Shown: positions 48,500-51,111 of the stretch, in pieces
Numbering within the stretch: position 1 is the stretch's first letter
Layout: each line of letters begins with the position of its first letter
Source of the DNA: a bacterium
GTDB lineage: Bacteria; Bacteroidota; Ignavibacteria; UBA10030
Length of the DNA stretch: 64,000 nt
NCBI GenBank assembly: GCA_043803945.1
Contig: JAZDJN010000027.1
Span: forward strand, 7,931 to 71,930
Direction of reading: 5' to 3'
Made by a program: the position numbers and the translations under genes
Notes under the pieces: generated by a model
What the model was told of the DNA's origin: nothing
Databases searched by the model: none
What the model saw: the letters and a program-made list of their open reading frames with translations, nothing else

Positions 48500-51111
48500 A
48501 TGAACCATATCAAAGTCTTGACGTTACTTGCCGTATCGATGATGATCGTGCAGCTTTCAGCTTCCAACGGTGACCGTTCGATGAACATGAACCTGCACAC
48601 TCAATGGAGATTTAAACAGGAAGGAACCGATCGATGGTACTCTGCGGCTGTACCGGGGTGTGTCCATACCGACCTGATGCAAAACGGACTAATTCCAGAT
48701 CCATTTGTTGGAACGAACGAACGCGATCTCCAATGGATTGGTGAAAAGAATTGGATCTATGAGACAACATTCGGCATTCCAGCCGCATTCCTCCGACAGG
48801 ACCATGTCGAACTTATCTTCGAGGGATTGGATACGTATGCAGATGTTACCCTGAACGACAACACCATTCTCCATGCAACAAATATGTTTCGCACATGGCG
48901 AATTGAATGCAAAAGCCTTTTACGAGAGGGGCAGAATCGTTTGGCAATCCGATTCAAAAATGTGTTCGACGAAAATCTCCCTAAACATCGTTCTGCACCC
49001 TTCGAGCTGCAAGCCTTCGATAACAATGATCAGGCAGAGGCAAAGATTTCCATGCATTCCCGCAAAGCCCAGTTCCATTACGGATGGGATTGGGGGCCCC
49101 GGCTAATCACGTGCGGCGTTTGGCGTCCTGTGGCCCTTCAAGCGTGGAGTGGATTCAAGCTTAACCATGTGCATGTCCAGCAACAGAATGTCACAGAAGC
49201 TGGTGCTGATATCCTCTCTGTCATCGCCATCGACTCAGATCGGCCGCGGGAGGTTTCCATACTCATGACGATGGATGACCTCCAGCTTGTTACACAGCGT
49301 GTGAAGCTTCAACAGGGGAAAAATGTTATTCCTCTTACAGGGCATCTGGCCAATCCAAAACTCTGGTGGACGAATGGCTTAGGTGCTCAATACCTCTACT
49401 CGTATCGGCTTATCGTGAAGGATGATTCCGAATTGAGTGATGAGTATACCACATCCATCGGCATCCGTTCTCTGGAAATTGTTCGGGAGAAGGACACACA
49501 CGGTAGAAGCATGTATGTGAAACTGAATGGTGTACCGGTCTTTATGAAAGGGGCTAATTATATCCCGCAGGACAATTTTCAGAATCGGGTGACTCGGGAC
49601 CGTTGCGAACACATTGTTCGTTCTGCCGCAGAAGCGAATATGAACATGCTCCGGGTATGGGGCGGCGGTATTTACGAAGACGATCAATTCTATGAGTTCT
49701 GCGACCGGTACGGTCTCCTTGTGTGGCAGGAAATGATTTTTGCCTGTGCGATGTATCCTGCTGACGGTGACTTTCTGGAAAATGTGCGGCAAGAGGTGAT
49801 TGATAATGTAACCCGAATCCGCAACCATCCCTGTATCGCATTGTATTGCGGCAACAATGAGAATGAAGCTGCCTGGTTTCAGTGGGGATGGAAGCAGAAA
49901 TACGATACACGAACGCAAGAAATTTTTGAACGGAACGCAGAAAGGCTCTTCTATGAAGTAATCCCTTCGGCGCTCCGGGAAGCAGACTCGACACGCTATT
50001 ATCATCCCACTAGTCCGATTGCCGGAATCAAAAATACTCCATACAGCGAAGGTGATATCCACTATTGGGGTGTGTGGCATGGCAAAGAACCGTTCGAGAA
50101 TTTCACTTCCAACATTGCCCGCTTTGTGAGTGAATATGGATTTCAGTCCTACCCTGAACTCTCCACCGTTTCAAAATTCGCCCGGCCGGAAGATCGACAG
50201 CTTCATTCCGATGTGATGCTGTCTCATCAGCGTTGCATGGCGGATGCACGGCGTGACAAAGAGTATGGCAATCGCTTGATACAGACATACATGGATCGAT
50301 GGTACCGTACGCCGAAAGATTTTGAATCATATCTCTATGTCAGTCAGGTTCTTCAGGCTGAAGGAGTACAGGTAGCATTGGAGGCTCATCGCCGGGCAAT
50401 GCCATTTTGCATGGGAAGCTTATACTGGCAGATCGACGATTGCTGGCCGGTGGCATCATGGTCGAGTATCGATTATTACGGCCGCTGGCATCATGGTCGA
50501 GTATCGATTATTACGGCCGCTGGAAAGCACTCCACTATGCAGCAAAAAACTCTTATGCTCCTATTCTGGTTTCTCCAGCGATGTCGAAAGACAGTGTCAT
50601 CCTTATTCTAGTTTCAGATGCATTGAAAGCGTTTGAAGCGTTGCTCGATGTAACGGTGATGGATTTCAACGGCACTCGAATTTCACACCTTACGCTTCCC
50701 GTGACTGTACCGGCGAATAGCTCGGCGAAGATTCCTACCATCCCGAAACAGCAGCTTATCGGAGATGCAAACGAATCCCGATCTGTTATTCACCTGCAAT
50801 TACGACGGGGGCAGGAAACTCTCCACGAACGATACGCCTACTTCCGGCTGCCAAAGGAACTGGAACTACACAAGCCAACCCTGATGAGAGCCATTCAAAA
50901 AAATCTAACGGGATATACCATTGAGTTGGCCGCATCGACACTTGCGAAATCTGTCATGCTTGCCTGCGGTGACGATGCATGTTTCTTCAGCGATAATTAT
51001 TTTGACCTGGTGCCGGGAATTCAAAAGACTATAACGGTAACGACAACAATGAAACAGGATGAATTCGAAAAATCATTGAAGATTATCAGCTTGATCGATA
51101 GTTATCAGTAA
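48500..51111 (+). pseudogene. GH2 beta-mannosidase disrupted by a 35-bp tandem duplication (frameshift splits it into ORFs 48500..50611 and 50407..51111)
   Basis: The N-terminal 'WYSAAVPGCVHTDLMQNGLIPDPF' and 'LIFEGLDTYADVTLN' are typical of beta-mannosidases. The unit 'tggcatcatggtcgagtatcgattattacggccgc' occurs twice in tandem (50451-50485 and 50486-50520). Removing one copy restores the continuous frame '...[25 protein letters not shown]...' and a protein of ~860 aa. Confidence 0.75.

Follow-up and report, generated by a model that had tools for sequence, protein, structure and literature searches.

We describe an interrupted gene for a beta-mannosidase of glycoside hydrolase family 2 (GH2) in the metagenome-assembled genome (MAG) of an uncultured bacterium of soil or peat, contig JAZDJN010000027.1, of which a window of 64 kb, the whole stretch of DNA that was analysed, was available. 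The gene carries a perfect tandem duplication of 35 bp which shifts its reading frame. The original prediction had placed three explanations side by side, namely a very recent inactivating mutation, a reversible slipped-strand switch and an assembly or sequencing artefact. The first of these is favoured here, on account of a rare direct repeat at the endpoints of the duplication, the single-copy state of the relatives and an undecayed coding sequence behind the frameshift. With a probability of about 0.65 the lesion is a genuine, very recent spontaneous loss-of-function mutation that arose by slippage duplication. The narrower statement that the duplication is a real mutation is given about 0.65-0.7.

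The 35-bp unit TGGCATCATGGTCGAGTATCGATTATTACGGCCGC is present twice head-to-tail, at 50451-50485 and 50486-50520, and the two copies are 100% identical, so that the duplication first noticed by eye is correct to the base. Read in order, the window has GCTGGCCGG, then TGGCATCATGGTCGAGTATCGATTATTACGGCCGC, TGGCATCATGGTCGAGTATCGATTATTACGGCCGC and then TGGAAAGCAC. Tandem Repeats Finder reports the region 50445-50523 with a period of 35, 2.3 copies, 97% matches and a score of 151; the reported span exceeds 70 nt because of microhomology in the flanks. It is the sole strong tandem repeat of the window, the runner-up scoring 55, and on neither strand of the window is the unit found anywhere else. By our own arithmetic (~64000 x 4^-35) the chance recurrence of a perfect 35-mer in 64 kb is negligible.

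As sequenced, the gene consists of two overlapping open reading frames (ORFs) in different frames, 48500..50611 (703 aa) and 50407..51111 (234 aa), both of them as previously listed. With one copy removed, a single ORF of 2577 nt (858 codons and a stop) results, which is free of internal stops; a protein of ~860 aa had been anticipated. The assignment to the GH2 beta-mannosidases is borne out by the Pfam domains of the repaired protein (Glyco_hydro_2_N2 at 36-209, E 1.8e-62; Glyco_hydro_2 at 265-323; Mannosidase_ig at 690-775; Ig_mannosidase at 778-855) and by its alignment with BtMan2A (PDB 2je8), which is collinear over residues 24-840 (E 3.1e-215) and gap-free across the duplication site. 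E454 (acid/base, in CGNNE) and E545 (nucleophile, in SEYGFQS) align with the catalytic glutamates of BtMan2A, which we take to be those numbered E462 and E555 (PDB chain index plus 23), and both are invariant in an alignment of 43 homologues. An AlphaFold2 model of the repaired protein, built on this 43-sequence alignment, reached a predicted local distance difference test score (pLDDT) of 82 and a predicted template modelling score (pTM) of 0.84. In this model the barrel ends with a strand at 638-641 and helix alpha-8 at 665-673, between which lies a loop containing a short helix (645-659); two beta-sandwich (Ig-like) domains follow at 677-858. Five domains are the conserved architecture among GH2 beta-mannosidases (PMC9232400). 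The repaired ORF alone has this arrangement, in which a pair of N-terminal beta-sandwich domains precedes the (beta/alpha)8 barrel and a pair of Ig-like domains follows it.

The duplication lies in one of the most conserved parts of the enzyme; within the duplicated stretch W654, S655, S656, I657, D658, Y659, G661 and W663 are invariant in the alignment. Native translation is kept through W663, whose codon comes from the first TGG of copy 2. Since 35 is not a multiple of 3, the frame is lost thereafter, and translation ends at a premature stop (50609-50611) which is 500 nt ahead of the native one. In the resulting 703-aa product both catalytic glutamates are still in frame, and the signal-peptide-like N-terminus, domains 1 and 2 and the larger part of the barrel are preserved; helix alpha-8 and both C-terminal Ig-like domains are absent from it. 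Close homologues, typically of 830-880 aa, all carry both Ig-like domains in a single chain. Judged by its architecture, the 703-aa product is most likely misfolded or inactive, because the last barrel helix and both Ig-like domains are lost. The gene as sequenced does not have one uninterrupted frame for the whole enzyme, and it is classed here as a disrupted member of its family and a pseudogene candidate.

How the duplication may have arisen can be read from its borders. In the single-copy reconstruction, GGCCGGTGG and GGCCGCTGG (microhomologies A and B) are spaced exactly 35 nt apart and match at 8/9 positions. The novel junction of the two-copy allele reads TTATTACGGCCGCTGGCATCATGGTCG, i.e. 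ATTATTACGGCCGC then TGGCATCATGGTCG, whereas a single-copy allele would run from GCTGGCCGGTGGCATC via one unit into GGCCGCTGGAAAGCAC. At the junction, GGCCGC-TGG-CA, B-type sequence on the left gives way to A-type sequence on the right, and identity extends rightward by 3 nt; the crossover is therefore placed in the shared TGG. Matches of at least 8/9 at a spacing of 35 occur at 5 of 63,915 window positions, and among 63,930 random 35-bp units of the window only 3 have flanking homology that is equal or better (~5e-5). The codons for W-P-V-A (GG-CCN-GTN-G) and for G-R-W (GGN-CGN-TGG) force matches at 5/9 positions, and the synonymous choices made in this genome raise them to 8/9. Slipped-strand mispairing between short direct repeats leaves exactly this kind of footprint, the classical one of misalignment mutagenesis (Streisinger, Albertini, Lovett). 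As the endpoints fall on a rare direct repeat, polymerase slippage is favoured over the joining of contigs as the source of the duplication.

The sequence of events suggested by the junction anatomy starts from a single-copy ancestor whose codon usage happened to make two 9-nt sequences, 35 nt apart, alike at 8/9 positions. Once replication had passed the downstream repeat, the new strand would have slipped back and paired with the upstream one, so that the intervening 35 nt were copied a second time. The outcome would be two perfect tandem copies that cross over within the shared TGG. The frameshift after W663 would lead into 40 unrelated codons and an early stop, and would thus put the gene on its way to becoming a pseudogene, inside a mannan-degradation cluster that is itself conserved. 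The duplication may collapse again to one copy via slippage or recombination; nothing marks such a collapse as a selected property. No second GH2 mannosidase paralogue, which might act as recombination partner or backup, was found in the window. GGCC being palindromic, the microhomology sites can also pair with each other and form a hairpin enclosing most of the 35-nt unit (50440-50500 in the single-copy reconstruction). A DNA hairpin as specific facilitator of slippage was rejected: at -9.3 kcal/mol it has a z of -1.1, and 25 of 200 shuffled sequences fold as well. The locus is a clean textbook case of microhomology-mediated tandem duplication, seen before secondary decay.

Relatives were collected by scanning genome contigs and metagenome contigs with the repaired protein. 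This gave 160 related loci, 158 of which span the duplication site. Their identity to the protein is at most ~70%, and the closest come from MAGs of soil, fen and peat that are assigned to Ignavibacteriota and 'Bacteroidota'. The single-copy allele, whose presence in related strains the original prediction had proposed to look for, was found in every one of the 158 spanning loci, without any indel at the site. A test segment of 90 residues is gap-free in 157 of them, the lone gap being downstream of the site. All relatives having a single copy, this state is ancestral and universal. Besides the source record, no sequence of the same species was found in the genome, metagenome and protein collections searched; the next protein is 68% identical and the next best match overall 68-70%.

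The stranded C-terminal region carries no sign of decay. Over its 195 codons the C/N identity ratio to homologues is 0.609, as compared to 0.603 +/- 0.065 in intact pairs. Of the columns that are conserved to at least 90% in this region 24/24 are kept, and the frame is still open. If real, the event would be very recent, because the copies are identical and the out-of-frame C-terminal region is undecayed.

The strongest rival is an artefact of assembly, scaffolding, polishing or library preparation, in which case the organism has one copy and an intact gene of 858 aa. We consider this unlikely, albeit clearly the most serious alternative. In its favour, the duplication has been seen once, in a MAG that bears no label other than 'bacterium'. 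Identical copies and an intact downstream frame with all conserved columns kept are exactly what an artefact predicts. Moreover, ~2.5% of the orthologues in public assemblies show frame breaks of technical appearance. These breaks affect 4 of the 160 GH2 mannosidase loci and are probably technical errors. One (L117, ~6685) is a 1-nt insertion in a C-run as compared to two intact loci (L006 and L084) that are 99.9% identical and come from other samples, and another (L080, ~560) is an NN scaffold gap. In the remaining two loci, from MAGs labelled MFD, the breaks are near A/T homopolymer runs (L029, ~12076-12081; L038, ~10372-10383 and ~10808-10826). Technical frameshifts elsewhere are thus homopolymer indels or N gaps and never duplications, which speaks against an artefact here.

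Several further points weaken this explanation. Overlap joins of contigs would not be expected to fall on a rare direct repeat of 8/9 nt with precisely this spacing (p ~5e-5). A 9-nt imperfect repeat is shorter than any assembler k-mer and cannot give rise to a graph cycle; de Bruijn contigs hold only k-mers seen in reads. A graph assembler therefore cannot make the junction from single-copy reads. Microhomology might also serve template switching in vitro, though a consensus would seldom be dominated by its products. The window contains neither other join-like duplications nor Ns. Coding sequence makes up 87% of it, Pfam domains are matched over their full length and no second gene is split, for which reason we reject the view that the frameshift is just one among numerous errors of a poor assembly. 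In GenBank the window ORF, its 40-residue tail included, is deposited without change as protein MFH0989525.1 ('MAG: glycoside hydrolase family 2 protein [bacterium]'), on one contig of 100,382 bp. The suggestion of an artefact is accordingly weakened by the coincidence with microhomology and by the clean window, and it keeps part of its weight.

Four points weigh against a genuine loss-of-function mutation. The duplication rests on one assembly, the best other protein being 68% identical. The undecayed tail and the perfectly identical copies are equally expected of an artefact. The simplest GH2 enzymes work with three domains (PMC5145203). Finally, domain architecture is the only basis on which the truncated product is taken to have lost its activity.

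A reversible ON/OFF switch, by which one-copy and two-copy alleles alternate through slippage and provide a bet-hedging control of beta-mannosidase, is improbable. It is true that tandem duplications are inherently unstable and revert precisely, and that an undecayed tail would permit full restoration of the enzyme. There are precedents in pneumococcal cap3A, cap8E and tts and in Ralstonia solanacearum phcA, as far as the papers citing them report. Yet the duplication is absent from all 158 spanning relatives, and the microhomology is not maintained beyond what the protein requires: in the relatives A and B most often match at 5/9 positions, the number already forced by the W-P-V and G-R-W codons, and only 7/160 loci reach at least 8/9. 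Three relatives (L037, L111, L113) possess the identical GGCCGGTGG/GGCCGCTGG pair and are single-copy nevertheless. A multi-copy tract of short units is absent, the repeat-pairing hairpin is no better than in shuffled sequence, and a periplasmic, nutrient-scavenging hydrolase is atypical as a phase-variable target. The switch put forward earlier is hence unsupported, the microhomology being conserved only as the amino-acid motifs force it and relatives with the same repeat being single-copy. The site appears to be slippage-prone by accident rather than as a conserved device.

Slightly more doubtful still is the idea that the two-copy allele is one state of a duplication/collapse polymorphism which is maintained in the natural population and switches beta-mannosidase. 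If this were true, the polymorphism would turn the enzyme, and by polarity perhaps also the downstream CE2 esterase, OFF and ON in a subpopulation. It would represent a duplication switch in the style of the pneumococcal capsule, acting on a polysaccharide-foraging enzyme of an environmental Ignavibacteriota-like bacterium.

It is also very improbable that the lesion is real without being inactivating, i.e. that the 703-aa protein is an active three-domain product or that the two ORFs encode a two-subunit enzyme. Both catalytic glutamates are upstream of the break, the minimal GH2 enzyme has three domains, and bicistronic GH2 enzymes arose through gene disruption (PMC5145203). The ORF 50407..51111 is open and overlaps the first one, each ORF has the full conserved 11-residue motif, and ATG 50458 or TTG 50407 are candidate starts of a second subunit. 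Against this, the break is within the barrel, ahead of alpha-8 (665-673), and not at a domain linker, and the close homologues all have their Ig-like domains in the same chain. The second ORF is without promoter or start signal above background, and the upstream stop lies ~150 nt beyond the candidate start, which makes translational coupling unlikely. A scan of 46.3-53.7 kb for sigma-70 promoters and intrinsic terminators remained at background level (8 versus 10.5 and 8 versus 6.6, respectively); it thus supports neither operon boundaries nor a start of the C-terminal ORF within the gene. Programmed ribosomal frameshifting that restores a full-length protein with an insertion of 11-12 residues can practically be dismissed: apart from the existence of two overlapping frames nothing speaks for it, a frame change at the site and hence a conserved recoding signal is found in no homologue, and the active-site loop would be duplicated inside the most invariant motif of the family.

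A fresh inactivating duplication is thus the reading we retain for the features collected in Table 1.

Table 1. Positions in the window of the duplication, the interrupted gene and the two adjacent genes
Feature	Position	Strand	Basis or remark
Disrupted GH2 beta-mannosidase gene	48500..51111	+	One 858-codon ORF after removal of one 35-bp copy
Microhomology A, GGCCGGTGG	50445..50453	+	Upstream member of the ancestral 8/9-nt direct repeat
Copy 1	50451..50485	+	Native frame; second base of V651 to end of codon R662; conserved motif
Novel junction, GGCCGCTGG then CA	50480..50488	+	B-type repeat joined to A-type downstream sequence
Copy 2	50486..50520	+	Identical to copy 1; upstream reading frame shifted by 35 nt (2 mod 3)
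Out-of-frame tail, 40 codons (HHGRVSIITAAGKHSTMQQKTLMLLFWFLQRCRKTVSSLF), and premature stop 50609-50611	50489..50611	+	ORF list; same tail in MFH0989525.1
Microhomology B, GGCCGCTGG, in native context, then AAAGCA	50515..50523	+	Read from the sequence
Stranded C-terminal coding sequence, own frame open	50521..51111	+	alpha-8 (665-673) and Ig-like domains (677-858); Pfam, model
GH5 beta-mannosidase/mannanase homologue (CmMan5A-like)	46868..48334	+	phmmer against PDB
CE2 carbohydrate esterase	51174..52271	+	Pfam CE2_N and GDSL; 62 nt past the native GH2 stop

The upstream GH5 gene matches Cellvibrio mixtus Man5A (1uuq, E 4.6e-125) and the exo-beta-1,4-mannosidase 4lyp (E 2.5e-80) in phmmer searches; a Pfam match for 46868-48334 was not obtained, so its GH5 identity comes from the PDB sequence search alone. 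GH2-to-CE2 adjacency recurs in five relatives (L001, L004, L012, L042, L097) and GH5-to-GH2 adjacency in two (L006, L117). The CE2 gene is likely co-transcribed with the GH2 gene, and the premature GH2 stop possibly exerts polarity on it. Enzymes of the CmMan5A type prefer oligomers with a degree of polymerisation above 2, those of the BtMan2A type prefer short ones (PMC9232400). By analogy, the neighbouring GH5 enzyme may compensate only partly, and cleavage of mannobiose would be most at risk. To call the GH2 product a key enzyme of a mannan locus, as the original prediction did, is reasonable in view of the GH5 gene upstream, the CE2 gene downstream and the recurrent adjacencies; the word 'key' is to be qualified, as the GH5 exo-mannosidase homologue may be partly redundant with it.

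Further downstream, 52284-58027 (+) holds three consecutive genes with type-IX secretion Por_Secre_tail C-terminal sorting domains. They encode an SMP-30/gluconolactonase-like protein, a protein with Big_7 and CBM35 whose ~400 N-terminal residues are without Pfam match, and a GH9 cellulase. These genes fit a secreted plant-polysaccharide degradation cluster. Another GH5 gene is found on the opposite strand in the downstream region.

About 2 kb upstream of the GH2 gene, at 45306-46382 (+), lies what is left of a GH31 alpha-xylosidase-like gene after loss of its 5' part. It has PA14, GH31 C-terminal and DUF5110 domains only, the catalytic barrel being entirely missing, and its residues 199-357 align to 797-954 of the 955-aa BoGH31A. 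GH31 homologues in the relatives have 940-1000 codons, and the part corresponding to the remnant begins at codon 590-650. A tRNA cluster at 44565-45008 (-) with Arg-ACG, Glu-CTC and Gln-CTG fills the ORF-free gap between a fructose-bisphosphate aldolase gene and the remnant, and 45000-45299 has a low G+C content of 31%. The truncation point adjoins these tRNA genes and so points to a tRNA locus as the site of a deletion or rearrangement. Taken together, the GH2 lesion and the GH31 remnant hint at an erosion of hemicellulose-degrading capacity in this lineage.

Elsewhere in the window, 33090-37417 (+) is a run of trehalose genes, starting with a GT20 trehalose-6-phosphate synthase whose N-terminal extension of ~270 residues has no Pfam match, followed by a trehalose phosphatase that overlaps it by 79 nt and by a TreT-type trehalose synthase. 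A 1331-aa ORF at 22731-26726 (+) has DUF2334 only and a weak match to a GH42 trimerisation domain, and a 664-aa ORF at 38143-40137 (+) has no Pfam match.

The lesion is of an ordinary type, a frameshift that has newly made a pseudogene of a member of a known enzyme family, and involves no new mechanism, system or family. Its predisposing repeat is traceable to synonymous codon choice in two conserved motifs. The chief use of the observation is an annotation caveat for this MAG. GenBank names the frameshifted 703-aa product an ordinary 'glycoside hydrolase family 2 protein', a name without any mark of a pseudogene or frameshift. To credit this MAG with beta-mannosidase activity in a metabolic reconstruction may therefore be a mistake; should the duplication prove an artefact, the error would instead lie in the gene model.

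Among known systems, the bicistronic GH2 beta-galactosidases of the LacLM type resemble the present locus in that a GH2 gene is split into two overlapping ORFs (PMC5145203). In LacLM the split is between domains and conserved across species, whereas here it is inside the barrel, seen in one assembly and without translation signals for the second ORF. In programmed frameshifting a frame change at a slippery site is conserved among homologues; no such conservation is seen at this site. Simple-sequence-repeat contingency loci share the chemistry of polymerase slippage that yields a frameshift. They consist of many units of 1-7 nt (homopolymers or 2-7-nt repeats) in a conserved tract; the present gene has only two copies of a 35-nt unit, and the repeat is found in 0/158 relatives. 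Closer parallels are the duplication-mediated phase variation of pneumococcal cap3A, cap8E and tts (Waite et al. 2001, 2003, as cited in PMC4022640) and the tandem duplications of R. solanacearum phcA (Poussier et al. 2003, as cited in bioRxiv 10.1101/2023.04.27.538605). As described in these citing sources, a perfect tandem duplication inside an ORF causes a frameshift and is in principle precisely reversible, and the same holds here, with a putative loss of function. The cited systems comprise both alleles, high-frequency switching in culture and a selectable surface or virulence phenotype, whereas the present locus is represented by one allele in one assembly.

The enzyme itself is best compared with BtMan2A from Bacteroides thetaiotaomicron (PDB 2je8 and related). 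That enzyme comes from a gut Bacteroides, and its counterpart belongs to an Ignavibacteriota-like MAG, with an activity that is predicted from sequence. Unlike that of BtMan2A, the gene described here is interrupted, and its product ends at 703 aa without alpha-8 and domains 4 and 5. When the gene is read with one copy of the repeat, both share the same five-domain layout with the NE acid/base and SE(Y/F)GFQS nucleophile motifs, and the YWQ...SWSSIDYYG motif at the very site of the duplication is nearly identical in the two.

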